A stretch of 16,882 nucleotides of DNA. It comes from an uncultured archaeon (GTDB taxonomy: Archaea > Asgardarchaeota > Lokiarchaeia > Sigyniarchaeales > SOKP01). Numbering within the stretch: position 1 is the stretch's first letter; each line of letters begins with the position of its first letter. The stretch lies in the NCBI GenBank assembly GCA_964447495.1, contig CAYUTF010000058.1:1-16882 (forward strand), given 5' to 3'. Positions 3 to 14,801 of this stretch are shown piece by piece. The position numbers were made by a program, and so were the translations under genes. The notes beneath the pieces are model-generated. The model was not told the origin of the DNA, ran no database searches, and saw only the letters and a list, made by a program, of their open reading frames with translations.

Positions 3-1082
3 CCCAAAGAGCACTCTCTTTCAATATATTTTCATGGAATTGACGGTATTGCCTGCAGAGTTCTTAATGCATCTCCTTCCAAACAGATACTTCTTCTAAT
101 TCCTTTTAGGGTATCTACATCACAAGAAAAAATTATTGTCACCGAAAACTCTATCAATTCCAGCAGGAGTAGTGCCTCTCCAATATCCATTACCCCCATT
201 TTGAAAATATGTGACACCATTTTAGAGGGTTTTTTGACTAGTGGAGGATTTTGTGACTCTCTTTCCCATTTACTACAATTAGATCTACACATCCAAAAGA
301 CATCCTCAAAAAAGCATCTCTCTCTAATTTCAGGTACAACTAGATATGTAATCCGTGTTGAACCACTTTTTGTTTTACAGAATGTACCAGGATTTAAAGA
401 AAAATCTATTTTATTTGCGTATCAGAGGCAAAATAACCTCCATGTAATTAGTATGAGTCAATTAGAACGCTATCTCGCATTTTTAGAAAAGAAATTATTT
501 TTTATTGAAAATTTTGCTCTTTCATATCGCGAACAATTCAATAGCGAGTTATTAAAAAACAAACGAAATCAAAACATTCGCAAGTTAAGTTATCCATTTA
601 TTACGTTTGGAATTGTATTTGGATTCATTTTAGCATCAGGATTATACGATTTTCTTAAAATATTTATCACATTAGGTTATGCAAGTATCGTTGTTTATAT
701 TGTCGGGTTAATTTTCCTCTTTCTACAATATCAGAAAGTGAATTCTAAAGTAACTGACCAATTTATAACAACTCATTATCAAGGATCACTTAGCTTTGAT
801 GAAGCAGACTTAACTTTAATTAGAGAAGAACTTTCCATTGATGAGATGGTCCAGTTTAGTTATGAGTGTTTTGGAAAAAACCCCACTTATAAAATTCTTG
901 AAAAAATAGAAAAAGAACAAATTGAGAAGCTATCTATCCCAAAAAAACCATCGAAAGAAATATTACAAGTATTTGAGACTTCAGCTTTATCTTCAATTAA
1001 ATCTACTAAGAATGAGAGTCAAAAATTGCAACAAAAAGATCATACTCTCATACAAAAATATAGTACCTTCCTTGATGATTAA
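3..1082 (+). CDS. 5'-truncated hypothetical membrane protein with a soluble alpha/beta domain (possibly degenerate PD-(D/E)xK/NERD-like) and a TM hairpin in its C-terminal half
   Basis: The frame of the listed 201..1082 ORF stays open back to nt 3 (PKEHSLSIYFHGIDGIACRVLNASPSKQILLLIPFRV...), so the TTG at 201 is probably not the start. Two hydrophobic helices are present: YPFITFGIVFGFILASGLY and IFITLGYASIVVYIVGLIFLFL. Confidence 0.8.
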   Translation, partial: PKEHSLSIYFHGIDGIACRVLNASPSKQILLLIPFRVSTSQEKIIVTENSINSSRSSASPISITPILKICDTILEGFLTSGGFCDSLSHLLQLDLHIQKTSSKKHLSLISGTTRYVIRVEPLFVLQNVPGFKEKSILFAYQRQNNLHVISMSQLERYLAFLEKKLFFIENFALSYREQFNSELLKNKRNQNIRKLSYPFITFGIVFGFILASGLYDFLKIFITLGYASIVVYIVGLIFLFLQYQKVNSKVTDQFITTHYQGSLSFDEADLTLIREELSIDEMVQFSYECFGKNPTYKILEKIEKEQIEKLSIPKKPSKEILQVFETSALSSIKSTKNESQKLQQKDHTLIQKYSTFLDD

Positions 1083-1128
1083 GTTACTTATTTTTTATCC
1101 TAATTTTTTCTTTAAAAATGATTAAAAT

Positions 1129-1908
1129 ATGTATACTATAAAAAATAATGGTATTGTCATGAATCTTAAGTCCGGGTTTAAAGGATTATTTATACTTGGT
1201 ATTTGTCTATCCTTTCTCTCGCTCTTTTTTGAATGGTATTCTTTTCAAGCGCGAGATTTGGAAGGTAACTTAGTTGTATTTTGGAATCTTTATTTATTTA
1301 TGGGATGGAATACAATATTTCCGCCAAATTCATGGTTTAATGTGGTATTCATGCCAAATGGAGACACTGTGCCGTTTGTAATGAATGTTATCTATATTGG
1401 GATAATGCTTATTAGTGTATACTCTGTAATTTTTTCAGATTTAGAATATTCTGATAATTTAGAGAAGGGTAAAAAGTATGCTTATGTTCATATTTTATTA
1501 TTATCACTTAGTGGATTTTATATTTGTATAGTTCCAATTTATTATTTGGTTTCTCAAGAATTATTTTTTCCTTATCTTGTCTATATGGATTTCGAATTGG
1601 AAGTCACCTTTTACTATTCAATTGCTGTGGGATATATCTTGCAATGCGTTGCATTTAGTGCTATGTTTCCTTATTCAATTTACTATTATTTTACCACAAC
1701 ACATTTCAATAACCAAAATAACACTAGCGAGACAGTTCTTCAGACTATAATTACACAAGTGCAGGAGTCACTGGATTTTGATAAGCTTATTGCTGAAGAA
1801 AAAGTTAAATTACAGCTTGAACCCGAAGAAAAAAAGACTATAGTGCATCAGGAAGAAGAAGTCAACCAAATTTATAATCAATTTTTAGAAACAAGGCGGG
1901 TAAAATGA
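1129..1908 (+). CDS. Four-TM membrane protein with claudin/PMP22-like topology and a charged helical C-terminal tail
   Basis: 259-aa ORF with four hydrophobic segments. W follows TM1 (FFEWY), then a beta-like loop ending LFMGW. The last TM begins YSIAVGYIL. Alternative ATG at 1159. The stop overlaps the next start (ATGA at 1905-1908). Confidence 0.8.
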   Translation: MYTIKNNGIVMNLKSGFKGLFILGICLSFLSLFFEWYSFQARDLEGNLVVFWNLYLFMGWNTIFPPNSWFNVVFMPNGDTVPFVMNVIYIGIMLISVYSVIFSDLEYSDNLEKGKKYAYVHILLLSLSGFYICIVPIYYLVSQELFFPYLVYMDFELEVTFYYSIAVGYILQCVAFSAMFPYSIYYYFTTTHFNNQNNTSETVLQTIITQVQESLDFDKLIAEEKVKLQLEPEEKKTIVHQEEEVNQIYNQFLETRRVK

Positions 1909-2756
1909 ATCAGCATCTTATTGATTTAAAGTTAAAGAAATTAATTGAGTTATGTTCTGAAACATTAAATTATAAGAAGATCGCGGTAGTAGGTTTTATC
2001 CTTCTGAGTAATAGGGTAGATGAGATTGGAGTACGATTCGGGATTAAGCCTCGTAATAAGGAAAAAGGTGAAAAAATATTCGAATATATGAACATAATTA
2101 ATGAAATACTCAATATTAACTTCAATATTCCTTTATTTAAAGAATCTATGATAGAAGATATATGTACCATTGAACTGCTCTTCCTTCGTAAGAGGGGAGA
2201 TATTTCATTACCATATATTAAGGATATTCTCACAATTTATTATGATTTAAGAAGTATAGATATTCCTGATGTATTCCAAGTTATCTCAAAAGATCAAATG
2301 TTTCAAGGTTCTTCCCTTAAAGTGTTATCTTTTTTTTCAGGTAAAAACAATGAGATAAAAGGAGGGAAAATGCGCCCTCTCATATTACAAAAGCTTAGAG
2401 AGGAGGAACGTCAAGCAGAAATGAGTTTAGCTCAACAATTTGATCGCACTACTTTTGAGAGAACATTACAATTAAAAACTATTAGGCAATCTATAGAAAA
2501 TCAGCGTTCTGGTAAGATTAGAATACAAGGGGCTCTAAAAGATAACATAAATTATATTCGCTCAAAAGAAAATATCCTTTATTACCTTATTATTGGTTGG
2601 CTTCTATTATTTATAATGTTAGGAGCAATTATTATTTTTGAATCTATAATATATCCTGAAATCACAGTAGGAGTAAGTCCCTACCTACTTTTAGTTTTTG
2701 GACCATGTCTCTTCCTGATATTAGTATATAGATTCTATAAAAGAATTAGAAGGTGA
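1905..2756 (+). CDS. Hypothetical membrane protein: helical N-terminal domain, helical middle, C-terminal TM hairpin
   Basis: 283-aa ORF, translationally coupled to the upstream gene by an ATGA overlap. TMs are ILYYLIIGWLLLFIMLGAIIIF and VGVSPYLLLVFGPCLFLILVY, followed by a basic tail RFYKRIRR. Confidence 0.85.
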   Translation: MNQHLIDLKLKKLIELCSETLNYKKIAVVGFILLSNRVDEIGVRFGIKPRNKEKGEKIFEYMNIINEILNINFNIPLFKESMIEDICTIELLFLRKRGDISLPYIKDILTIYYDLRSIDIPDVFQVISKDQMFQGSSLKVLSFFSGKNNEIKGGKMRPLILQKLREEERQAEMSLAQQFDRTTFERTLQLKTIRQSIENQRSGKIRIQGALKDNINYIRSKENILYYLIIGWLLLFIMLGAIIIFESIIYPEITVGVSPYLLLVFGPCLFLILVYRFYKRIRR

Positions 2757-2763
2757 GAATATT

Positions 2764-5700
2764 ATGACAAAAAATTACTCAGAAATATTAAACAAACAAG
2801 GAGCTTTTTCCCCTAAAAATAATGTCGAAAAAGATTCTCAATACCAATTTCTTAATATATGGGAAGAAGATATTCCATCCTTTAAGGATATAAGAACTTC
2901 TATACTGAAATCTGGTATTTTCATGTTGTTAGGTATTGTCTACCTAATTACAATGTTCTTAATTTCTAAAAACTTAATGGTTGCTATTGGAGTTATGTTG
3001 GGATATTTCCTCTTTTTTATTATAATTTTCCGAGATAAATTCGATAATTTAAAGCGACTTTTCCATTTTAGAAGCTATAATTCATTTCGAAATTTCGAAT
3101 TTTGGCAATTTCAAGGTGATACCTCAATAGTTTTAATAAGAAATCGCTATGAATACACTACTACAGCACTAAGAATTTTGCAGGTTGAAATTCTCCCTGA
3201 AAATGTCAAAGGTAATCTGAAAAAGTTAATTAAAGCATTAGCAATAGCTTATATCCCATTTACTTATCAAATTGTTCAGAAACCACTACTTTCTTCACTA
3301 AATGACGAATCATCTTTTCAATATGAATCAAATAGATTCAAAACCCTAATTTATTTCACAATTTTTTATGATCTCCAAGGATCAATAACTTCTCAGAAAT
3401 TTCAAACCTTTATCGATAAGCTAAATTCATATACAATCTCTTTAAAGAACAACCTTCATTCAAATTTTCATCATTATAGAGTAGTTGATCTCAAGGATAC
3501 AGCTTTAATTGATGCTTTAAGAACCTCATTTCTAAAGAAAGAACCAAAAAATGAAAGAAATCAAGAAAAAACGTCTCAAGAGGCAAATAAGTATAGGAAA
3601 AAAAAAAATGCTTTACGATTAGCAATTAAAATTATCTTTATCCTAATACTTGTTTTCACTGCTGATGCATTACTTGCTAAATTGCAAGTGAATCTTTTTT
3701 TGCGTGTAACATTCTTTGGAATCTTTATTGGCTTAATTATTTCCCAGTGGTGCTATGAATTACTTGAAGTCATCACATTAAGGAAATCTATATTATTTAA
3801 ATCTGATAAATTTCGATATTTTGACCTATTTGAGGGAATTTCCTTTTATAAAGTAACTGGATCAAAAAATACACTTTTCTTTCAAGGAAATAATTCTATT
3901 TTAGGGGGTATGAAACAACTCCATCTCACATTTGCTATTGCGCCTCTGATTTCTGCTCCTAATAAATTTTATCAAGCTCTAATCGAAGCAGGAATCCCCT
4001 TTACTTACACTATACAATGTTTACCGACTTCATTCTATAATTTCGAGAAAAAATGTAGGAAATATCTTAAAATTCGTGAGCAAAAAAGAATCTTAAAAAA
4101 AGTCTTATCTACTGCTAATGAAAATAATTGGCTTCAAATGAGAGGCGGTATTTGGAGAGTTATGTTGACATTATCAACTTCTTATGCTGAATTCTCCCAG
4201 GATATTACAATCGATCGTTTAGAAATGATAGAATCAGTCCTTAATACAAACATAGAAATTGCGAAAAATGCATTTATATCAAACTTCCCAAACTGTAATT
4301 TGGAGCTCCTTCAATCTAAAAGTTTAGAATCGGGAGTTCTTTTTGAAGCGTTTAAAAACAATAGATTTACGAGATATGGGACCCATTTAAATAGTATAGT
4401 ACTTCAAGGTTATGACTTAATCTCATTAACATGGTTAGCCGATGAATTTAAAAAAGGGATAGAAACCAAAATTGCCGCAGAGTTTAATAGTCCTCTCCAT
4501 CTAGAGAACTTTATTACTATTGGCTATACCATTAATACAGAAACACTAACCCGAGAGATCCCAGCAGGATTTATGAAATCTCAACTGGATAATCTTCTAA
4601 TTACCAATGGTCGATCGGAACAGCAGCACCTTCTTGTTATGCGAATTGTGAGGGAGTTAGTAACAAAAGGTTATCCTTCACTGATATTTGATTTCACAGG
4701 AGAATGGTCGCGTATAATTCGAAGTTTTCAAGGAACTAATCTCGAGGATTCATTCCTCTATTATAAAATCGGAAAAACCTTCAATCTGGACTTAATACAT
4801 TCTGGAATTCCCTATGATCAAAATAATATCGATTACTTGGATTATATGTTTGAAGCCTATGCCAACTGTTTTAAAAAAGATGATCGCACTATTGAAATAT
4901 TTAAAAATTCGCTTAAACGTTCCTTAGATGCAGGAGAGGACCTATCAACCAGTACAATAGCCTTGGATTTGCTGAGCAAACCAGATTGGAAAAAAAGGGA
5001 AGAATCTGCAATCAATTCGGTAATCAATTTCTTCCATGAGTTTTCTAGAGACGAGCTAAATTTCTTCCACATATATTCTGAGACTTCCACTTCCCAAAAT
5101 CTTATTAATGATATTTTAACCAGTAAACAAACTAATATAATTGACCTATCCCAACCAAGTAGTCTAGAAAAAAAGGCTTTTCTTATGTTTGTAATACTTG
5201 CTAAATGTATCCATTATATCAAAAATAATCAAGATTTCAATGCGAAATTCCTTATCTTACCCCATATTGATGTGATATTCGACGCATTCTTTTTAGATAA
5301 AAATATGCGCTATGGGAGAATCAATAAATTTTTCGATCCTTTACGAAACGCCGATTTTGGGCTTATCTGTATGGCCTCCCAAGCACGATATCTCCATTCC
5401 AATCTATTTACTGATTTCGATAATATAATCTGTTTTAAAGCGACGGATAGCCGAGATATAGCGATCTTAAAAAACACGATGGGTTTGGACACAGTGCATG
5501 GTACAGGTATTTACAGCAAAACTAGGAATGAATCCTATCAAGTTAAATATCTTATGAGTATGCGATCTAAGGATGCATTGATGAAGCGAGATGATATCTA
5601 TCAACCTTTTCCTATAGAAGCGGATTGGGGTGTATTTGAAAACTCACCAGTAATGACGTGGGTGGAGATTATTTCTTATATGAGACAACAAGGCTATGAT

Positions 5701-6573
5701 TTAGAATTTGCAGAAAGAAAGTTACTGGCTCAAGCAAAAAAAACAGTTTTCGAAAAAGATTTTGGGAATTATAGTACTTTCATTGATGAAATCATAGCTT
5801 TTTTGGGAGATTTACGGACTATGGATCAAATTGGAAATATATATGCCGAAACTATTAAGAAAGAGCTTAAAATTCGGTTGAATTTCAAACTTTCTAAACT
5901 TACGCAAAACAAAAAGCAAAAGAAACAAATCCGAGACGATATATTTCAAATCCTTCTTCAACATGAATATTTAAAAGAACACCATCCCGCACAAGCAAGT
6001 GGTTCTGAATCGATTCGCACCTCCTATTATGTAGGACCACAATTTGATAAAGCCTTAGAGGACTATATTCAAGTCAAAAAGCAGATTTCCCCTACGGTAG
6101 AGGTAATCCAGCAACAATCGGATGGTGTGATTCTACCTGACAATCCCATTTCCGACCGTTCATTACTCTCTAAAACTACTCTCGATTCTCATAAACTACA
6201 AGAAGTAATAGCAAAGGAAATCGGGGAAACATTATTTTTCGATCTTTTTGAAATCTATAAAGCAATCAACCACAAGGACTATCGGACAGGACTTGAAAAA
6301 GCCCAAGAGTATCTCACACACTTTATCTTTCAAGTTTATAATGAGTATTACGATGTAGATTATGTTATTACTAAAAGCGATTTAGAACGGTTTATTTCTG
6401 ATTTAACCCATTCTAAGGGATTTCCGTTCAGTTATGACGAGTTTAAGAAGTACATGAATCTATGTGAAAGTATATGCTTTACCGAAGACAATTTGGAAGA
6501 GACTATTCAAACCATCTATACCCAGTTGGAAATGATTCATAATAAAATCAAAAATTACATTTATTCGAATTAA
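2764..6573 (+). CDS. Membrane-anchored HerA/VirB4/TraD-superfamily (FtsK-HerA) protein with degenerate Walker motifs (probable pseudo-ATPase)
   Basis: 1269 aa with two TM hairpins. HerA/VirB4 landmarks occur in the canonical order: NLLITNGRSEQQH (aa 610-622, Walker A position), LIFDFTGEW (640-648), IIDLS (792-796), FLILPHID (829-836, Walker B position), LRNADFGLICMASQ (860-873), then NIICFK...DIAILKNTMGL. Confidence 0.8.
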   Translation: MTKNYSEILNKQGAFSPKNNVEKDSQYQFLNIWEEDIPSFKDIRTSILKSGIFMLLGIVYLITMFLISKNLMVAIGVMLGYFLFFIIIFRDKFDNLKRLFHFRSYNSFRNFEFWQFQGDTSIVLIRNRYEYTTTALRILQVEILPENVKGNLKKLIKALAIAYIPFTYQIVQKPLLSSLNDESSFQYESNRFKTLIYFTIFYDLQGSITSQKFQTFIDKLNSYTISLKNNLHSNFHHYRVVDLKDTALIDALRTSFLKKEPKNERNQEKTSQEANKYRKKKNALRLAIKIIFILILVFTADALLAKLQVNLFLRVTFFGIFIGLIISQWCYELLEVITLRKSILFKSDKFRYFDLFEGISFYKVTGSKNTLFFQGNNSILGGMKQLHLTFAIAPLISAPNKFYQALIEAGIPFTYTIQCLPTSFYNFEKKCRKYLKIREQKRILKKVLSTANENNWLQMRGGIWRVMLTLSTSYAEFSQDITIDRLEMIESVLNTNIEIAKNAFISNFPNCNLELLQSKSLESGVLFEAFKNNRFTRYGTHLNSIVLQGYDLISLTWLADEFKKGIETKIAAEFNSPLHLENFITIGYTINTETLTREIPAGFMKSQLDNLLITNGRSEQQHLLVMRIVRELVTKGYPSLIFDFTGEWSRIIRSFQGTNLEDSFLYYKIGKTFNLDLIHSGIPYDQNNIDYLDYMFEAYANCFKKDDRTIEIFKNSLKRSLDAGEDLSTSTIALDLLSKPDWKKREESAINSVINFFHEFSRDELNFFHIYSETSTSQNLINDILTSKQTNIIDLSQPSSLEKKAFLMFVILAKCIHYIKNNQDFNAKFLILPHIDVIFDAFFLDKNMRYGRINKFFDPLRNADFGLICMASQARYLHSNLFTDFDNIICFKATDSRDIAILKNTMGLDTVHGTGIYSKTRNESYQVKYLMSMRSKDALMKRDDIYQPFPIEADWGVFENSPVMTWVEIISYMRQQGYDLEFAERKLLAQAKKTVFEKDFGNYSTFIDEIIAFLGDLRTMDQIGNIYAETIKKELKIRLNFKLSKLTQNKKQKKQIRDDIFQILLQHEYLKEHHPAQASGSESIRTSYYVGPQFDKALEDYIQVKKQISPTVEVIQQQSDGVILPDNPISDRSLLSKTTLDSHKLQEVIAKEIGETLFFDLFEIYKAINHKDYRTGLEKAQEYLTHFIFQVYNEYYDVDYVITKSDLERFISDLTHSKGFPFSYDEFKKYMNLCESICFTEDNLEETIQTIYTQLEMIHNKIKNYIYSN

Positions 6574-6584
6574 TAAAGAGATTT

Positions 6585-6950
6585 ATGCTTATTATGACAG
6601 TTATGGATGAAATTGATCAGCTCACAGATGCCTTGGAAAAGTTAATTTTTCATAAAGATGAACTAAGAGAGATAGGAAAATCAATCACTCAACTAAAAGA
6701 TGGTACATGCACTCCTGAAAAGTTAAAAACCAAATTATTGGAATCACGCATACGAATGTTTAATGATATCGTTGAATTTATGAAATTTTTTTTCACACAC
6801 ATTGATTCAAATGAGTCAGAAGAACCATTACCTCAATATCTTAGGAAAGATCTTAAAGAAAAGAATTCTTTACTAACCGAAATAGCAAAAAGATTACTAA
6901 CCATAACTTTGGAAAAGAAAATTGGCAAAAATAATAATATAAAAAAATAA
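6585..6950 (+). CDS. Small helical soluble hypothetical protein, last gene of the run
   Basis: 121-aa ORF starting 11 nt after the previous stop, with amphipathic helical composition. Alternative in-frame ATGs at 6594 and 6603. Confidence 0.7.
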   Translation: MLIMTVMDEIDQLTDALEKLIFHKDELREIGKSITQLKDGTCTPEKLKTKLLESRIRMFNDIVEFMKFFFTHIDSNESEEPLPQYLRKDLKEKNSLLTEIAKRLLTITLEKKIGKNNNIKK

Positions 6951-6954
6951 AATT

Positions 6955-7095
6955 TTAGTTAATATCGTCGATATATTTTAACCATTCATCCCATAAACTG
7001 GGCTCAGAATAATGATTCTGGACACATTTCTGTAAACTATAAGAGCAATCCCTATAAGTATCATCTTTTTCATAGTTTTTATCATCAAAATACAT
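6955..7095 (-). CDS. Unannotated 46-aa acidic small protein MYFDDKNYEKDDTYRDCSYSLQKCVQNHYSEPSLWDEWLKYIDDIN
   Basis: Read manually: ATG at 7095-7093, TAA at 6957-6955. GAGGT lies 7 nt upstream (GCAGAGGTATTTTGAATG). The ORF ends 4 nt from the convergent gene's stop. It is too short to appear in the ORF track. Confidence 0.65.
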   Translation of the reverse strand: MYFDDKNYEKDDTYRDCSYSLQKCVQNHYSEPSLWDEWLKYIDDIN

Positions 7096-7249
7096 TCAAA
7101 ATACCTCTGCAACTTGTTAATTATAGATAAAAGCGCTAATTGATGAATCTATTTAAAGAAAAAATCTAAAAATCATTCTGTAAACTTAAAATCTTTTATA
7201 TTTGGACAAGATTAATGGTTCAATTTCTAGACAGAAAAGTAATTTTTTC

Positions 7250-7257
7250 TTTATATA
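7250..7257 (+). promoter_or_regulatory. Candidate archaeal TATA box for the GNAT gene at 7308
   Basis: TTTATATA matches the TTTAWAWA consensus about 50 nt upstream of the ATG. The AT-rich background weakens the call. Confidence 0.4.
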
Positions 7258-7307
7258 GATTAACGAATTTAGACTTTTCACAATCAGTACTATGAAATGG
7301 ATATTAT

Positions 7308-8576
7308 ATGATCACCCAAGAGATTATACCCTATCCTGTAGTTCCCTACAAGAAACTATTTCCGAGCTCAATTGATGCCTTTTTAGAGCTTTTTGAAGGA
7401 ATACTTGATAGTGAGAGTATGGAATATGGAATGAACCTAGAATTTGTCATCGATAACAGGATCGATAATCCAAAAGTGAGCCCTGTTCTCCGATTGGCCA
7501 AGTCACATGAAGCTAAATTCATAACTCAGATTTGTAAAGAAGTTTATCAGCACACTTATCCTTATAAAGAGTTAATGGACGAAAAAACAATTCAAGACAT
7601 GATTAGAAGCCCTGAACATCATTTCATCTTGTTTTTAGTGGAAGATCAAGTAGTGGGATGCTTTCGCTGTGCGCTAGATTTTTCTCAAAAGAAAGGGTAT
7701 ATGGGCGGATTCATGCTTAAAAGTCCTTATCATGGTACCATCGATGTGGTAAAAGCCATCATTGGTTCTTATGTATGGATGTGGAACACTTTTAAGGATG
7801 AGATTTTAGTATGGTACTGCGAAAATCGGACAGCGCATGCGGCTTCCCAGTATATAACAGCTGTATGTGGTATTCACACCATAGCCCTCTTTCCGAATAA
7901 GGATGTATTCTACAATGAAATTGAATCAGATGTCATGGGCATCACGTATCAGAAGCATGTTCTTCCTAGGTTGCGAAGGAGTAAACATCCATGCTTGATT
8001 GAGAATGTGATCGATTGTTATTTATATGCAGATAGGCTCTACAATTTAGGTAATTTCAATTTAGTATCATGCGATCTTAAAGTTGACACGCGAAAAATAC
8101 AGGATTTACAAAAAAGAGTCGTGATCTCATGTACAAGAGATACACATGATTATCAGCATATTCGATTTTCTATAGAGGCAAATAATGCTTCATTTACTTT
8201 TCTACACACCCCTCATATTCAAAATTGCGAAAAAATTACTTATCATGTCTCTTCCAATGAAGAATTATTCGTTTTTATGGAATATTTTAGAGATTACATG
8301 AAAGAGCATCAAGTAAGATATAGTGAAATCTTTGTGTCTGCATATAAACCCCATTTTCAGAAGATATTAATCGAGTTTGGTTTTAAGGCAAGGGGATATG
8401 TACCTTGTTGGAAGTATCATAATAAACACCATTGTTTTGAGGACCATATCCTCTTTAACTATTATGAAGGTGAATTGAGAAATATCGATCTTCTTCCTGA
8501 AGGGCTGCAATTATTTGAGATCATTGGTCTCAATAAAATTGAAAGTGAAGGCTTGAACTTAAGAGAAATTTATTAA
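7308..8576 (+). CDS. Tandem GNAT-fold N-acyl/acetyltransferase-like protein
   Basis: GNAT pattern LRLAKSHEAKFITQICKEVYQHTYPY...LVEDQVVGCF...GYMGGFMLKSPYHG and CENRTAHAASQ. A second GNAT-like C-terminal end reads FQKILIEFGFKARGYVP. Confidence 0.75.
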   Translation: MITQEIIPYPVVPYKKLFPSSIDAFLELFEGILDSESMEYGMNLEFVIDNRIDNPKVSPVLRLAKSHEAKFITQICKEVYQHTYPYKELMDEKTIQDMIRSPEHHFILFLVEDQVVGCFRCALDFSQKKGYMGGFMLKSPYHGTIDVVKAIIGSYVWMWNTFKDEILVWYCENRTAHAASQYITAVCGIHTIALFPNKDVFYNEIESDVMGITYQKHVLPRLRRSKHPCLIENVIDCYLYADRLYNLGNFNLVSCDLKVDTRKIQDLQKRVVISCTRDTHDYQHIRFSIEANNASFTFLHTPHIQNCEKITYHVSSNEELFVFMEYFRDYMKEHQVRYSEIFVSAYKPHFQKILIEFGFKARGYVPCWKYHNKHHCFEDHILFNYYEGELRNIDLLPEGLQLFEIIGLNKIESEGLNLREIY

Positions 8577-8681: not shown

Positions 8682-9845
8682 CTACTTTTTAGAATTTATC
8701 AATTCAATATTCTGTAGAATCTTATTTTTATTAGGATCATTATTTCTAAATCGAATTATTGATTCCAAAATTTCGTCTTTTGAACATCCTATCGTTTTAA
8801 GAAATCTTTCAATGCCTTCAGCATTAAATGTGCCTTTATATATTGAATGAGCTATTCTTTTATACAATCTCAACCATTTTCTTCGATTTACTTGACGGAC
8901 TCGATCGTCAGGAGTTTGTCTTACAAGTTCAGCATATTGTAAAGCATAGGTAAGTCCCCCATAACGATAGAAGTCGTACATTGCGGCAGCTTTAACAACA
9001 TGACAATTCGTTAGAATAGGATCTGCTTTTCCTTTTTGAATGAATCCCTTAGTTTCCACGGTTTCAATTATTTTATTCTCGTCATATTCCATAACATGGT
9101 AAGGTAAGATTATTCTTGGCATATCCCCTATTGAAATTTTTTCATTGTTGATGAACATCTCCCTATCCTTCTTCGTAAATGGAGCTAAATCAACAAATAT
9201 TGGTTTCCATTCATTTAAAGCCTCAATTCGGGGGATTTCATAGAAAAATCTCTTAATTTGATCAGGAGAATAACCAAAAAACACATATGGAATATCTCGT
9301 TTTATTGCTTCGTTAACAATGATACTATGGATTAAATCACTACATTTATCGCACACGTTCACCGTCAGAGAAATTGTATCCGACTCATGATTAAAAAATA
9401 GCCACCGATATAGCCTCGTGAAGCTTTTTGCTGCATCTTCAAAAAATAGATGATGTTCTTCAATATTCATTTTTTTCAGTGTATCCTTAATATTTTGCTT
9501 TGCAACTTCGGTCATAAATCCTGTATCAATTGTGATTGCTAATACATTCAATTGAAGCTCATTCATCAAATAATCGAGTAAAGCTGTTGAGTCTTTACCA
9601 CCTGAATACCCTAATACACAATGATACTTCTTTTTTCTTGGGGAACTCTGTAGTCTCTGTATCACACTATTCCAATCATTAAGCTTTTGATGTCTTAGAT
9701 CACTATCAATTTGTACCTTCGACCAGTTTTCATTTTTATGATTTGGATTATTACAGTAATCACAGAGCCCCTCATCATTCAACTTTAATCCTAAAAATCC
9801 ATTTGGAATAATGCAATTTCTGCAAAAATGTTCTTGTTTTATCAT
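8682..9845 (-). CDS. PP-loop (adenine nucleotide alpha hydrolase) ATP pyrophosphatase, N-acetyl-sugar amidotransferase/WbpG-like, with an N-terminal Cys4 Zn site
   Basis: N-terminal CRNC-x16-CDYC. PP-loop YHCVLGYSGGKDS, followed by LAITIDTGF, an internal CDKC, FFGYS and TNC. Confidence 0.85.
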   Translation of the reverse strand: MIKQEHFCRNCIIPNGFLGLKLNDEGLCDYCNNPNHKNENWSKVQIDSDLRHQKLNDWNSVIQRLQSSPRKKKYHCVLGYSGGKDSTALLDYLMNELQLNVLAITIDTGFMTEVAKQNIKDTLKKMNIEEHHLFFEDAAKSFTRLYRWLFFNHESDTISLTVNVCDKCSDLIHSIIVNEAIKRDIPYVFFGYSPDQIKRFFYEIPRIEALNEWKPIFVDLAPFTKKDREMFINNEKISIGDMPRIILPYHVMEYDENKIIETVETKGFIQKGKADPILTNCHVVKAAAMYDFYRYGGLTYALQYAELVRQTPDDRVRQVNRRKWLRLYKRIAHSIYKGTFNAEGIERFLKTIGCSKDEILESIIRFRNNDPNKNKILQNIELINSKK

Positions 9846-11168: not shown

Positions 11169-14100
11169 TTATTCTATATTATTTTCAGTTATTTCGGATG
11201 CATCCAATTTTGGTTTCAAAGGTGGATATATAGGCTCAAATTTTTCATTAAACAATTTGGAATTCATCCAAATTTTATCAATAGGATTCCAATTTAAATT
11301 AATTATCGGATTATAATCATTTTTCAAGTCAACATCATTGAATAATTGACTAAGGAAGTGGTTTCCATCAACTAATTCAGTGATAAGTAAGACATGTGAA
11401 ATTCCTAAATAGGTAAAAATTCTAGATAAATATTCAATAAAATCACTAATATCAATATCGGGAAACCAAATTTTAATATATAATCCATGTTCAAATGATT
11501 TTACCTTTAAAAATGAATGTAAATAATATTCTCCTTCAATTTCATGAATATGAACCTTATTAAAAAACCGGAAGATATCTAAAATGGGTCTTATAGCTGT
11601 TTCATTAATAGAAGGAATAATAAAAACTACATTTTGATGAAGATTAAGATTTGAAGTTTTAACATTAAACATTCCTATTTTCTTTTTAATGAATGAATTC
11701 ACTTTAGCATAAACATCCTCATCTTTAGGTAAAGAACCAATATATTTTAAATTCCGAGTCTTATGAGGATAAATAGATACCAATTCAGTGAATTCAGAGC
11801 TATAAGGCGCAAAATTTTCCTTCTTAATTTTTTCTAAAATTGTAATGATCTTATAATTTGCTTTAGGATTAATTTTTTGTTTATTAAATAATATTTCTTG
11901 GACATAAGTTAAGAAAAGACTGAAATCCAAGTTCCAAATTGCTTTCTTATCCTCAATTTCTACATTTTGAAAAACATTATGAAGTAAATAGACTTTCTTA
12001 ATCGTAAAAAGACAATATTCACTAATATTTTTCTTTGAAAATAATAACCAATTGATGTAACTTAAATTTGGATTGTTAAAGGGGAAAACATACTTTATAA
12101 AGAAAATATATGAAGATTTTGATACTTCTGAGAACTTAAGTGATTGAAAAGTGTTCGATAAAAGTAATTTAAAATCTATTTCCGCCATATCCATTGGTCG
12201 AAAATATAAATAATATTTTTGTAATCCAAAGTGAGAAAGAAAAGGCTCAAATTTTATTGATTTGATGTAATGGGAAAAAATGCTGTCCTTTTTTAAATTG
12301 GACCAATAACTTTTATCCTCGAAAGCGGGCTCTATTTTAGTAAGAATGTGAGTTAATTTTTTAAAATCTTCGTAAATAATATCTTCTTGATCCCTATTAG
12401 AATTAACTTCTTCAATCAAATATTTTAAAGTGGTTCTTTTGAATAAATTTTTAACAGGAATGTTCCATTCTGTCTCTTTAAATAAGGGAATATTTTTTCC
12501 GAAGAGCTTTCGGCTATAAAGTAGATATTGTTCAAATAGAGCGGATGTATAAAAAAATTCTTTGTTAATAAAGTCATAAAAATTTCGTCTTGTAAATGCT
12601 TCGGTTATTCCAGAAAATAGTACTTTATTGCAACTTATTAAATTTCCTTGAAATAAATGGTGAAATGTTGTAATAAAATCACTTAATTCATTTATATCCA
12701 TATGGGGTAAATTCAATAAACAGTAAATGATATTCTGTTTCGAATCATCACATTTAATTTCCAAATAAGATAATCGAGGGGTTTCCATAGCTAAATCCTG
12801 TATTTTAGAAAGAACTTCGGGAGTTGAGTTTAACAAGAAAATAAATATATTTTTTTCCACAATAAGAGTCACTAATGAATTTGTCAATTGTGGTTGGATT
12901 ATAGGAGGGGACTTATTTACAAATTTCTCCAATCGCGATTCAACCTCGTTACTCGTTATATCCCCCGGTAATATTTCAGCATACACATCTTCAATTTTTT
13001 TTTTCTTTTCTTTATAAATCGACCTGAATAGTTTAGGATCTTGAATAATATTTCTAATAGAGGAAATATCATATAGTTTTAATTCCATACATATTTCTAA
13101 TAGCTTCAAGAGGATACTATAGTTATGTGCTTTCTGGAGAAATTTATTTTGTGAATTTAAATATAATGGATATAGATTTTGAATAAGAAACGCTTTCATT
13201 TTTGAATTCTTTAAAATAAGATTTTTATCTAAGGATGAAGATAATCCTTGATTCTCAATACGATTAATTAATTCTGATATTGGCATTTTTTTTTGATTTT
13301 CCTTTAGAAAGCTCCTAAGTTGTTCTATTATACTGCAAATTTGAGAAACATAATTATAGATGATAAAGAAACCGTCTTTTTGATTTTTCACGATGAAATC
13401 TGTACATGTGTTCCTTAATTCAGAATTTTGTGAAATTTCTTTTAACAAATTCCTAAGATCACTGATGATTCTTTTTTGTTTTGACAACTCATTTAAAAGA
13501 TCGTCTTTTAAACTAGAAAGTGTTGACTCACGCCTTTCGAAGCTAAAACCAGTTAAAGAAAGCTGGCGAGCTCTTTCAATAATTAGAAAATCAAATAATG
13601 ATAACTCAGACATAAAGGTTGCATCAATATATTCTAATTCAGAATTTAAAACAAGCTTTTTGTTGTATTGTTTCACAAATGATGGAACAAATTTCTCAAC
13701 TTCTGCATTATCTAAATAATAGTTTAGATTATAAAATGATTTACCTTTTAAGATTGGAAACAAATCTGCAATTAATAAATAACCGCTTTCTTTTAACTTG
13801 ATTAAAAAATCTCTTAAATCTTGCAAATATGAGTTAGGAATGATAAAATATCCGAAATACTCCTTTGAAAATCCAGTCGGTAGGAATTGAGATATTAAAT
13901 TAAAGGGTAGTTGCGATAAAAATTTATCAATCTTAAACCATGGGAGGATTGGATGAAAACGTATATGAATATACAAAAATGAGATATTTATCGCGTTCCA
14001 ATTTAATAAGTAAATTGGAGAACAATACGAATATTGACTTAACCATCTTACATTTGAAATAAAAGCTCTTAATGATAATGAGGTATGAAGTATTCCCTTT

Positions 14101-14801
14101 TCTTTAAATTGCTTAAAATATTTTTGATAATCTAAAAGTGCCCGATAACTTTTTACTTTATTGAAGATAATATTCAAAACCCTAATGGTTTCTAATAAGT
14201 TTTCATTTTCTCCATACACTTGTTTTAAACTTTTCATGTGAATACGGATTAAAACGCGATAAAGATACTCATATGACACTTCAGAATCAAGGGTACGAAG
14301 AAAATGAAAAAGAGTTGATATGAGGCTCCTTTCGGAATTTGGATATTTAAATTGTAAAAATTTTTTCACTGAATCATATTGAAATGTGAAGAATTGACTA
14401 TATACATTTATTTTACGTACTTGCTCTTTCCATTCATCAATGTATTCATAACGCGAAAGATCTAATTCAATGAGCATATAGATAAAAAAATGCATCTGAA
14501 TGTTATTTCTCAAAGACTCTTTAAGAAAACAAAAATACGCTTCTCTTAATAGAATTATTGGTATAAAGTGTGGAAATTTCTTAGAAATTCTAATAAGTAA
14601 TCTATTATCTTGATATTTTTCTCTTAGTACTAAACCCAGAGGACTTAATAACTCTGATTCAAATATATCCTCCTCTCCTAGAATTATCTTGACATTCCGT
14701 GCAATAGGATTAAGATTTATTCTTCTAGATATTAGTTCTAAATATTTTTCAAATATGTCTTGAATCTCATCGATTTTAAAATTTGCTATTAGATTTTCCA
14801 C
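11169..14801 (-). CDS. Very large (1210 aa) hypothetical protein with repeated Lrp/AsnC-like (wHTH + ferredoxin-like) modules and an N-terminal degenerate zincin-like helix
   Basis: Long ORF with a GTG start and AGGGGA upstream. It has repeated Lrp-linker-like segments (SPIYLLNWNAINISFLYIHI; IKFEPFLSHFGLQKYYLYF; FNVKTSNLNLHQNVVFII) and an N-terminal ILLREAYFCF. The CDS is certain; the domain call is moderate. Confidence 0.7.
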   Translation of the reverse strand: MENLIANFKIDEIQDIFEKYLELISRRINLNPIARNVKIILGEEDIFESELLSPLGLVLREKYQDNRLLIRISKKFPHFIPIILLREAYFCFLKESLRNNIQMHFFIYMLIELDLSRYEYIDEWKEQVRKINVYSQFFTFQYDSVKKFLQFKYPNSERSLISTLFHFLRTLDSEVSYEYLYRVLIRIHMKSLKQVYGENENLLETIRVLNIIFNKVKSYRALLDYQKYFKQFKEKGILHTSLSLRAFISNVRWLSQYSYCSPIYLLNWNAINISFLYIHIRFHPILPWFKIDKFLSQLPFNLISQFLPTGFSKEYFGYFIIPNSYLQDLRDFLIKLKESGYLLIADLFPILKGKSFYNLNYYLDNAEVEKFVPSFVKQYNKKLVLNSELEYIDATFMSELSLFDFLIIERARQLSLTGFSFERRESTLSSLKDDLLNELSKQKRIISDLRNLLKEISQNSELRNTCTDFIVKNQKDGFFIIYNYVSQICSIIEQLRSFLKENQKKMPISELINRIENQGLSSSLDKNLILKNSKMKAFLIQNLYPLYLNSQNKFLQKAHNYSILLKLLEICMELKLYDISSIRNIIQDPKLFRSIYKEKKKKIEDVYAEILPGDITSNEVESRLEKFVNKSPPIIQPQLTNSLVTLIVEKNIFIFLLNSTPEVLSKIQDLAMETPRLSYLEIKCDDSKQNIIYCLLNLPHMDINELSDFITTFHHLFQGNLISCNKVLFSGITEAFTRRNFYDFINKEFFYTSALFEQYLLYSRKLFGKNIPLFKETEWNIPVKNLFKRTTLKYLIEEVNSNRDQEDIIYEDFKKLTHILTKIEPAFEDKSYWSNLKKDSIFSHYIKSIKFEPFLSHFGLQKYYLYFRPMDMAEIDFKLLLSNTFQSLKFSEVSKSSYIFFIKYVFPFNNPNLSYINWLLFSKKNISEYCLFTIKKVYLLHNVFQNVEIEDKKAIWNLDFSLFLTYVQEILFNKQKINPKANYKIITILEKIKKENFAPYSSEFTELVSIYPHKTRNLKYIGSLPKDEDVYAKVNSFIKKKIGMFNVKTSNLNLHQNVVFIIPSINETAIRPILDIFRFFNKVHIHEIEGEYYLHSFLKVKSFEHGLYIKIWFPDIDISDFIEYLSRIFTYLGISHVLLITELVDGNHFLSQLFNDVDLKNDYNPIINLNWNPIDKIWMNSKLFNEKFEPIYPPLKPKLDASEITENNIE

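Follow-up and report, generated by a model that had tools for sequence, protein, structure and literature searches.

What does a compact run of membrane-protein genes do when the protein at its centre resembles the motor of a type IV secretion system (T4SS) yet has degenerate ATP-binding motifs? This question is raised by the window, the stretch of 16,882 nucleotides analysed here, which opens a contig of 20,866 bases (C58; G+C about 30%) from a 3.8-Mb Lokiarchaeia genome in 223 contigs, with an estimated completeness of 98%; this DNA is found in salt-marsh sediments. Positions 3-6950 of the window hold five open reading frames (ORFs), designated g1 to g5, all on the plus strand and separated by intergenic gaps of 46, -4, 7 and 11 nt. 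Across related genomes, g1-g5 constitute one conserved operon of a family-level Asgard (Lokiarchaeia-type) group. The core protein g4 is predicted to adopt a VirB4-like fold, and its classification as ATPase-dead by motifs, with a P-loop that is degenerate throughout the family, is well supported. Type IV secretion and the archaeal Ced/Ted importers share VirB4 as their signature motor, and a vertically inherited clade that keeps the VirB4 fold and its membrane anchoring without the ATP-binding motifs would represent a new use of the T4SS core, all the more so with new membrane partners and a helicase nearby. Moreover, this clade belongs to a group of archaea that is nearest to eukaryotes and about whose cell biology and modes of gene exchange very little is known.

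The run comprises the 3' part of g1 (3..1082), an ORF open at its 5' end that covers 359 of about 486 codons; g2 (1129..1908), a tetraspan membrane protein of 259 aa according to its ORF and hydropathy; g3 (1905..2756), of 283 aa, whose start overlaps the g2 stop by 4 nt; g4 (2764..6573), the VirB4-like pseudo-ATPase of 1269 aa that forms the operon core; and g5 (6585..6950), a small soluble helical protein of 121 aa in its short form. The co-orientation and spacing previously described from the letters alone (hereafter the sequence-only reading) match the ORF coordinates exactly, and a hydropathy scan likewise assigns transmembrane (TM) segments to four of the five genes, g1 to g4, and none to g5. 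The lack of a simple annotation also holds, as no Pfam model reaches its cut-off for any of g1-g5 (searched at E up to 0.1) and NCBIfam provides no match to them. In agreement with the suggestion that the system is undescribed, full-text word searches retrieved neither the operon nor a paper on an Asgard VirB4-like pseudo-ATPase; such searches are blind to sequence, and the asCOG and arCOG supplementary lists may name the family.

The sequence-only reading had further expected the run to extend beyond the left edge of the window, where an active ATPase partner might lie. The start of another contig, C167, is the exact reverse complement of window bases 1-55, and the g1 frame runs 127 codons further on the minus strand of C167 to an ATG, with a 17-residue overlap with the window part. 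The full g1 would have about 486 aa, and the sequence over the C58/C167 junction is collinear with the nearest homologue; the join was accepted because of the exact 55-base overlap, the open frame and this collinearity. Contigs from three other sequencing runs reach 109-355 nt past window position 1. Within one sequencing run, a possible source of the assembly, two contig variants that are 5 substitutions apart were seen at window positions 26-141, and strain-level variation in this segment is the probable reason why the contig ends within g1. Beyond the g1 start, genes are encoded on the opposite strand, an alpha/beta-hydrolase membrane gene first and a superfamily 2 (SF2) helicase gene next, and the co-oriented run therefore consists of five genes with no leftward continuation. 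As for the active partner, an ATPase of the SF2 helicase type does adjoin on the left, but it lies on the opposite strand, outside the operon, and is not of the HerA/VirB4 type.

To place the run in a comparative context, 20 loci were fetched with flanks of about 7 kb, and the window proteins were compared with them by phmmer. The order g1-g2-g3-g4 is found in 16 of the 20 loci and g5 in 12; among the 29 best loci, g4 is immediately preceded by g3 in 28 and immediately followed by g5 in 26, so that the anticipated co-occurrence of the genes is borne out. The compared genomes are kin, and these counts overstate independence. A collection of 5.8 billion proteins contains 57 homologues of g4 at E ≤ 0.001, nearly all full-length (about 1240-1340 aa) and 32-59% identical, and the close homologues that bear names are all proteins of Loki-, Hermod-, Hod-, Thor- or Promethearchaeota metagenome-assembled genomes (MAGs), in line with the Asgard lineage guessed earlier. 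An exhaustive HMMER search with g4 residues 421-1269 recovered 164 proteins at E ≤ 0.001 among 1.84 billion representatives; ten distant clusters were looked up, of which five were named (Promethearchaeota, Baldrarchaeota and Helarchaeota, plus one labelled Bathyarchaeota). The family is thus essentially Asgard-only. At E ≤ 1e-10, a g4 homologue is present in 116 of 400 genomes of the phylum, including 101 of 134 in the window's family. In a second family of the same taxonomic order, g4 is found in 10 of 14 genomes at about 23% identity, with ORFs of 1230-1270 aa, and outside these two main families g4 occurs at this threshold in about 4 of 252 genomes. The same families of flanking genes are met in different genera, an indication that the chromosomal position is stable. 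Separately, two full g1-g5 clusters were observed in single MAGs (L036/L037 in G242 and L038/L039 in G250), with a helicase copy of its own near each, and G276, a genome of 10 contigs, has two g4 matches. These second copies were rejected as evidence for a co-duplication of the cluster with the helicase, since the contamination estimates of G242 and G250 are 8-9% and either true paralogy or mixed bins may account for them.

It might be argued that the five genes form no functional unit and are adjacent simply through the kinship of the compared genomes, given that the syntenic loci all come from one family and are not independent. At 4 of the 20 loci, moreover, g4 occurs without g2 and g3 in the same orientation, two of these operon-less loci belonging to the sister family and two to the window's own family, though to different genera. 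However, gaps of -4 to 46 nt and an overlapping stop and start are maintained at 33-59% protein identity, and the pairing of g1 with g4 persists even at about 23%. At the sister-family loci L053 and L054, a divergently transcribed gene next to g4 retains the g1 layout (a soluble part followed by a hairpin) and a ..F-L-E-D-type C-terminus, and at the operon-less f1 locus L052 a helix-hairpin-helix (HhH)-hairpin relative of g1, with an HHH_5 match, likewise adjoins g4 divergently; no g1-like neighbour is found at g4 in L050. A mere accident of shared ancestry is therefore hardly credible as an explanation of the arrangement.

What kind of protein g4 is can be approached through its structure; all structure-based statements in this work refer to predicted models. 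An AlphaFold2 model of g4 residues 1-1200, built on a 39-sequence alignment, has a mean predicted local distance difference test (pLDDT) score of 79.3. When this model was compared with the PDB by Foldseek, TrwK/VirB4 chains of plasmid R388 came first (E 1.8e-18 to 3.8e-14 over about 960-1000 columns), followed by HerA (E 9.7e-13). The model has the two-domain fold of VirB4, with an N-domain and a RecA-like C-domain. All coordinates of its parts are on the plus strand. After an N-terminal tail, a first TM hairpin (aa 45-93; 2896..3042) is indicated by hydropathy and by model helices 46-68 and 71-88. A VirB4-N-domain-like region (aa 106-560; 3079..4443) follows, as delimited by a VIA alignment to full-length TrwK that starts with model residue 106 at chain residue 15, and is split into two halves by a second TM hairpin (aa 280-330; 3601-3753) supported by hydropathy and the model. 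The RecA-like part, modelled as a HerA/VirB4/FtsK-type P-loop-fold domain (aa 568-982; 4465..5709), comes next, and an extension of about 290 residues completes the protein. VirB3 is fused N-terminally in some VirB3-VirB4 proteins, and hairpin 1, which precedes the N-domain, may be placed in the same way, a likeness that is purely positional.

The P-loop site of the model is formed by strand 610-614, three loop residues and helix 618-634. The degenerate Walker A (aa 610-624; 4591..4635), located by sequence, model and alignments, reads as the strand LLITN followed by G-R-S-E-Q-Q-H, and residues 615-622 (N-G-R-S-E-Q-Q-H) do not contain G-x-x-G-x-G-K-[ST]: the position of the Walker A Lys is taken by Q in g4 and by R in most relatives, and that of Ser/Thr by H in g4. 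The consensus of the 39 sequences at this site is L-L-I-T-N-G-x-x-x-x-R-E, in which G616 alone is invariant, and relatives at 20-25% identity read G-G-T-x-E-Q-R-F or similar. Among the sequences aligned at the site, close and distant, G-K-[ST] occurs in 0 of 33 (a 34th, P0164, has gaps there). At the Walker B position (aa 829-836; 5248..5271), assigned from the model and alignments, h-h-h-h-D-E is absent and strand 829-832 is instead followed by P-H-I-D, where P833 is invariant and D836 nearly so; distant members show D-x-x-D/E after this strand. With the VirB4 fold at the top of the Foldseek ranking and Walker A degenerate in every aligned relative, the earlier description of g4 as a HerA/VirB4-like pseudo-ATPase stands.

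Sequence models detect this relationship to a limited extent. In a six-frame search, the HerA central-domain model (DUF87, PF01935) scored 30.9 bits on g4 against a cut-off of 23.2, over profile positions 40-216; since the match begins at position 40, it lies after the P-loop region. A whole-protein hmmscan of g4 returned nothing at E ≤ 0.1, DUF87 included, and PF01935 matches only 3 of the 39 family members at E ≤ 0.01, while three other DUF87 proteins are encoded elsewhere in the host genome. PF03135 (CagE_TrbE_VirB) has no match in the whole genome at E ≤ 0.01, and no PF12846-type model was found for g4 in the general Pfam scan (E ≤ 0.1), with no search aimed at PF12846 itself. Comparison of g4 with the PDB by phmmer gave nothing at E ≤ 1, and a match of the g4 family profile to isopropylmalate synthase (E 0.079) was dismissed as chance level. 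Within the C-terminal extension, residues 1050-1106 (5911..6081) probably form a winged helix, as suggested by an H-H-H-E-E-H pattern in the model. This module holds the highly conserved Y-L-x-E-x-H-P..A-S-G-S-E-S, with Y1069, E1072, H1074, G1080 and S1087 invariant. Pfam gave weak winged-helix matches, all below cut-off, in a few relatives: of 39 examined, two matched MAGE and one RIOX1_C_WH, and of 10 distant ones, three matched HTH_34/PadR.

These features bear directly on whether the locus is simply an ordinary conjugative T4SS of an integrated element, or a Ced/Ted importer. The VirB4-like fold of g4 would suit such an assignment, as would the small membrane proteins that adjoin it, an arrangement also described for Ced in the accessible part of the published account (PMC9905601). 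Nevertheless, the Walker A motif is degenerate, PF03135 is missing from the genome, and the locus is a conserved chromosomal feature, not one of variable insertion sites. No VirD4, relaxase, integrase, VirB6/TrbL or pilin was recognised by Pfam in the window or the examined flanks, in agreement with the earlier remark that neither relaxase nor integrase nor pilin is visible in the window. A combined Pfam and NCBIfam search of the window, C167 and the examined flanks for VirB6/TrbL, VirB3, VirB8, VirD4 and relaxase was also negative, although g1-g3 are too divergent for sequence models. In addition, the terms Asgard and Lokiarchaea have 0 occurrences in the accessible text of the Ced/Ted study (PMC9905601). 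Ordinary membership is largely refuted by the motif test on the sequence, and we consider it very improbable.

The membrane partners of g4 are more difficult to relate to known families. The window part of g1 consists of an alpha/beta domain (aa 1-150), a TM hairpin (aa 195-246; nt 585-740) and a helical C-terminal domain, and ends in the tail ..YSTFLDD, which is conserved across homologues. Its relatives, of 530-800 aa, comprise a helical N-terminus, (HhH)2, a long acidic variable linker, the alpha/beta domain, the TM hairpin and a helical domain, the last of which carries a conserved F-D-E-x-D-L-x-L-I-x-E-E and leads to a near-invariant C-terminal K-Y-S-S-F-L-E-D. HHH_5 is found in 15 of 20 family members (best E 9.8e-13), and the family profile matches the RadA/Rad51 N-terminal HhH in the PDB (1.1e-9) together with the HhH of Topo V, NusA and Pol beta (overall range 1e-9 to 1e-3). 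In the window's g1, the N-terminus and linker are present and the HhH is absent, and no Pfam match was obtained on the N-terminal part encoded by C167. The AlphaFold2 model of the window part (pLDDT 78.3) had no Foldseek match at E ≤ 0.001, nothing nuclease-like appeared, and VIA matched only the long helical hairpin; the possible pseudo-nuclease folds of the sequence-only reading thus found no confirmation.

In g2, three TM segments exceed the hydropathy threshold, and a conserved fourth passes it in a homologue. An alignment of 17 sequences shows a Trp-rich, conserved outer loop 1 (about aa 40-78) with invariant W52, W60 and P76, further invariant residues at P148, D216 and E224, and a cytoplasmic acidic tail with a conserved D-x-D-K-L-I-A-E-E that resembles the g1 motif. 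Except for TPR_22 (E 0.06, in the Pfam scan at E ≤ 0.1), g2 has no Pfam, NCBIfam or PDB sequence match, and no model of the PMP22_Claudin type was among its Pfam matches. Whereas the claudin signature is W..C..C in outer loop 1, Cys is found in this loop in 0 of the 17 sequences, and the claudin likeness once proposed for g2 comes down to its four TM segments. The third partner, g3, pairs a conserved cytoplasmic helical domain (aa 1 to about 215) with a TM hairpin at its C-terminus (aa 221-279; nt 2565-2741), and its 17-sequence alignment has a mean column identity of 50%. No match to g3 was found in Pfam, NCBIfam, the PDB or the Protein Atlas, and the g2 and g3 profiles likewise matched nothing in the PDB.

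Two short motifs recur among these proteins. An F/L-D-x-D-x-L-I-x-E-E motif follows the hairpin of g1 and is found again in the tail of g2 (window about 1770-1800), and the C-terminal Y-S-S-F-L-E-D of g1 (window 1056-1079) is kept even in the sister family; on sequence, the two acidic motifs look like docking peptides for a common partner. A domain or adaptor shared by g1 and g3 with g4 was also sought by profile-profile comparison and rejected, since the similarity was confined to the TM hairpins at a probability of 7-10%, and g5 gave nothing. A resemblance between P-F-A-Y-Q of g1 and P-F-S-Y-Q / P-F-T-Y-T of g4 was unsupported by the same approach.

The hairpin layout and the clusters of Lys/Arg that flank each TM segment provide the basis for topology. 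By this prediction, all large domains would be cytoplasmic, with only the g2 loops and the hairpin turns outside. Such a topology, which places nearly all of the soluble mass in the cytoplasm, makes the cell-cell contact role that had been envisaged for the system unlikely. It also accords with a housekeeping role, in which the proteins would act as a nucleoid-membrane tether or membrane-organising scaffold, anchoring DNA via the HhH and the winged helix without any transport. A purely structural function of this sort would agree with the family-wide loss of the ATPase motifs, with four proteins that insert short hairpins and not long bundles, with a g1 in which a long disordered linker connects a DNA-binding domain to a hairpin, and with the near-universal, apparently vertical presence of the operon in the family and its stable neighbourhood. 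It is less easily reconciled with the window's g1, which lacks the HhH though the operon is intact, or with the scarcity of the system elsewhere among the Asgard archaea, where most families lack it (about 4 of 252 genomes outside the two main families at E ≤ 1e-10). Furthermore, DNA binding by g4 is only inferred, and a tether assigns no role to the RNase fusions and the dedicated helicase neighbour described below. A tether of this type is regarded as unlikely.

For the last gene of the operon, g5, the module is in some relatives the N-terminal part of a longer protein. Its homologues at 26 loci are short in 17 cases and long (about 290-310 aa) in 9, with an NYN RNase domain in two of the long forms and an R-x4-H domain in the other seven. 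The NYN assignment comes from PF11977, which scores 41 bits against a cut-off of 23 and was found in 2 of the 13 g5 homologues scanned. In the alignment of the R-x4-H forms (seven proteins plus two duplicate fetches), R224 and H229 are invariant in 9 of 9 sequences, most of which read R-N-x-x-x-H. This domain has no Pfam or PDB sequence match, and its nearest named Atlas clusters, Cas_Csm6_HEPN and HEPN_RnaseLS at 0.86-0.88, offer a lead only. In the window's genome, tblastn detected no NYN or HEPN-like remnant downstream of g5 or elsewhere. A complex prediction for g4 residues 560-1269 with g5 reached a best score of 0.25 against a mark of 0.32, controls not included, and speaks neither for nor against an interaction.

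Downstream, a GNAT-like protein of 422 aa (g6; 7308..8576, plus strand) scores 17.2 bits with Acetyltransf_1, below the cut-off of 20.7. It is found downstream in 9 of the 20 loci, and its longer homologues (about 640 aa; L040-L048) add a DUF998 membrane domain (36 bits in L040). It may belong to the unit as its sixth gene or may simply be a neighbour that is often retained. The spacer between g5 and g6 (6951-7307) is 357 nt long, A+T-rich and devoid of ORFs of at least 60 aa; an ORF of about 46 codons can be read in it by eye on the minus strand.

On the other side of the operon, clustering of the flanking ORFs identified a helicase family that is divergent from g1 in 14 of the 20 loci. The proteins contain DEAD, Helicase_C and archaeal helicase domain 4, and score 326-407 bits with Hel308 equivalog models, whose cut-offs are 887-1216, over the first ~470 residues only. 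In the genome of the window (locus L003, contig C167), domain matches place the Hel308-related helicase at 2557-4482 on the plus strand, continuing on C136, and the intervening gene at 554-2218 on the plus strand encodes the alpha/beta-hydrolase membrane protein of 554 aa (Hydrolase_4, 46 bits; multi-TM C-terminal half). The hydrolase gene thus sits between helicase and g1 here, whereas the helicase adjoins g1 in most relatives; a second helicase, 32% identical, is encoded elsewhere in the genome (C3). The distinctive C-terminal half of the helicase is present in 91 of the family's 134 genomes. When its positions were compared by hand with those of g4, it was located 4.8-8.4 kb from g4 on the same contig in 53 places in 51 genomes, and 14-29 kb from g4 in four family genomes. 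This half, which the Hel308 models do not cover, contains Cys-x-Cys ... Cys-x-His and looks like a SWIM-type zinc finger. As judged from its sequence, the helicase is a candidate for a real ATPase in the position of a conserved neighbour.

With RNase-type fusions on one side and a helicase on the other, an antiviral or abortive-infection defence system has to be weighed as the main rival explanation. Under such a scheme, g1-g4 would constitute a membrane-anchored sensor, with the dead ring as sensing scaffold, for foreign DNA arriving at the inner side of the membrane, and the SF2 helicase and the RNase linked to g5 would be activated or recruited by it. The occurrence of g5 alone, with an NYN domain or with a HEPN-like domain could represent alternative effectors on one small adaptor, which is the usual pattern in conflict systems, and SF2 helicases such as the one found here are common among defence components. 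The presence of two cluster copies in some genomes could point in the same direction, although some of these MAGs are those with contamination estimates of 8-9% and may be mixed bins. On the other hand, a search of nine proteins (g1-g6 and the long g5 among them) against PADLOC-DB 2.0 gave nothing at E ≤ 0.01 except a 16-bit match of Mem_02 to the long g5, which is not at a meaningful level. Most copies, that of the window included, are without an effector domain, as the 17 short forms among 26 g5 homologues indicate. Defence systems are usually patchy and located in variable islands, whereas this operon occurs in 101 of the 134 family genomes in a conserved neighbourhood. Finally, known HerA-based defence NTPases are active and g4 is dead by its motifs. 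Defence is therefore possible but rather doubtful; if it proved correct, an Asgard-specific membrane-based type would be added to the sparse catalogue of archaeal immunity.

Instead, the operon is tentatively predicted to encode a T4SS derivative, domesticated on the chromosome, by which DNA (possibly RNA) is moved or threaded at or across the cytoplasmic membrane, a reading that we favour while according it somewhat less than an even chance. It fits the VirB4 likeness of g4, a membrane part made of several components, vertical inheritance on the chromosome, and the domains related to DNA. Such a system would be comparable to the crenarchaeal Ced/Ted DNA importers, save that its VirB4 is dead and its motor a helicase. 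In this model of translocation, g4 would form a VirB4/HerA-like ring on the cytoplasmic face of the membrane without canonical P-loop ATP hydrolysis, and would serve as a scaffold or portal. It would be held there by its own hairpins, by those of g1 and g3, and by the tetraspan g2, which would be the sole candidate pore element. Nucleic acid could be bound by the HhH head of g1, where present, on its long acidic linker, and by the winged helix of g4, while g5 might act as an adaptor that docks accessory nucleases, bringing an NYN or HEPN-like RNase in some genomes. Motor activity and energy would come from the divergent Hel308-related SF2 helicase and not from g4. The copy in the window is a minimal version with neither HhH nor RNase. 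The general interpretation as a membrane machine offered by the sequence-only reading is thus retained in part: its Asgard lineage, degenerate Walker A and gene co-occurrence hold, its leftward run does not, its claudin likeness is unsupported and cell-cell contact is unlikely. The (HhH)2 on g1 relatives, the RNase-type g5 fusions and the helicase neighbour go beyond it.

A number of observations weigh against translocation. To our knowledge, every T4SS, Ced or Ted system is energised by an active VirB4, and g4 is dead. No VirB6/CedA-like protein with at least 6 TM segments, pilin, VirD4 or relaxase was detected with Pfam/NCBIfam. HEPN and NYN proteins are RNases that, in prokaryotes, are typical of conflict systems and not of DNA transfer. 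The large domains, including the HhH of the relatives, are predicted from sequence to be cytoplasmic, unlike those of a cell-to-cell apparatus. The operon in the window has neither HhH nor RNase domains, and therefore neither can be essential to the core function. Adjacency of the helicase is likewise seen among kin genomes, and in two closed sister-family genomes it lies 15 and 27 kb away. Finally, neither the winged helix nor the likeness of hairpin 1 to VirB3 in its placement goes beyond inference.

A bolder reading is also conceivable, namely an Asgard machine of a new kind in which a VirB4-derived ring without ATP hydrolysis serves as a fixed portal or anchor at the inner side of the membrane, HhH-linker hairpin proteins hold or thread chromosomal or incoming DNA, and the Hel308-like helicase performs the work. 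Only a slim chance is given to this reading. If true, it might provide a route of DNA exchange between these syntrophic archaea and their partners or, alternatively, a prokaryotic analogue of eukaryotic inner-nuclear-membrane DNA tethers, in which a head that binds DNA is likewise joined with a linker, two TM segments and a winged helix. The operon offers a testable handle for these ideas, with five proteins and with distant relatives in closed sister-family genomes.

Two other regions of the window deserve mention. A PP-loop ATPase gene with an N-terminal Cys-rich stretch (8682-9845, minus strand) scores 111.6 bits with its best NCBIfam model, that for the N-acetyl sugar amidotransferase WbuX, whose cut-off is 203. 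It is flanked by two GNAT-like genes, and the PP-loop and GNAT-like genes may represent a small sugar or cell-surface modification cluster. Further downstream, an ORF of 1210 aa (11169-14801, minus strand) is a second large orphan with no Pfam, NCBIfam or PADLOC match at the thresholds used, and lies in the stretch of lowest G+C (0.25-0.28) in the window.

How, then, does the operon compare with known systems? The nearest known protein to g4 is VirB4, represented by TrwK of plasmid R388, which acts with VirB3/TrwM. The two share the two-domain fold at 10-13% identity. In contrast to VirB4, g4 has degenerate Walker A and B motifs and no PF03135 match, and adds the second hairpin within the N-domain as well as the ~290-residue C-terminal extension with its probable winged helix. 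At the level of the system, no VirB6, VirB8, VirD4 or relaxase partners were found, and the operon is chromosomal and Asgard-restricted. In the accessible part of a review of T4SS diversity, archaeal systems are presented as plasmid-borne VirB4- and VirD4-like pairs (PMC12857230). Because the Walker A and B motifs are not conserved, PF03135 does not match and no canonical partners were found, the operon is not considered a member of the T4SS, and at most works like a T4SS inner-membrane platform.

Also among the closest systems are Ced and Ted, DNA importers of Crenarchaeota, which, according to the accessible text of the study cited above, are chromosomal domesticated T4SS derivatives composed of a VirB4-like protein, a polytopic protein and small two-TM membrane proteins, with helicase or HerA genes often near the Ted loci (PMC9905601). 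The likeness to CedA/A1/A2/B and TedA/B/C lies in a chromosomal set of VirB4/HerA-like, polytopic and two-TM proteins (PMC9905601). However, the same text presents CedB/TedB as ATPases that power import (PMC9905601), and by its motifs g4 should not be able to act as one. CedA has six or seven TM segments and g2, the only polytopic protein of the operon, four, a comparison made by TM count only. Unlike Ced/Ted, the operon contains no recognised VirB2-like pilin, and the ORF listing for 3-6950 includes no small two-TM protein with a signal sequence. Large cytoplasmic domains are carried by g1 and g3, and relatives add HhH and RNase accessory domains.

In the model, the ATPase-like domain of g4 also resembles HerA, DndH and TrwB. 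The HerA complexes (HerA-NurA, SIR2-HerA/Nezha, DUF4297-HerA, TdpAB and DndH) are soluble, active ATPases with HAS-barrel N-domains, whereas the N-domain of g4 is of the VirB4 type, its P-loop is dead and it carries membrane hairpins. Pfam found no NurA in the window, there is no SIR2 or DUF4297 partner, and PADLOC returned no meaningful match. FtsK/SpoIIIE is an active motor, and the structural match of g4 to it is much weaker than that to VirB4 or HerA. With regard to division of labour, the Gram-positive ComEA/ComEC/ComFA system, in which a membrane-anchored (HhH)2 binder, a channel, a nuclease and a DEAD-box-type helicase act together on DNA, provides a functional analogy only, with homology limited to the HhH and SF2 folds. 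The HhH of ComEA is extracellular and that of the g1 family is predicted to be cytoplasmic, and competence operates without a VirB4-like component. Compared with these systems, the operon is best viewed as encoding a membrane apparatus of the T4SS/HerA-FtsK superfamily whose core has been inactivated and whose partners are new, with a real chance that it represents something more distinct.

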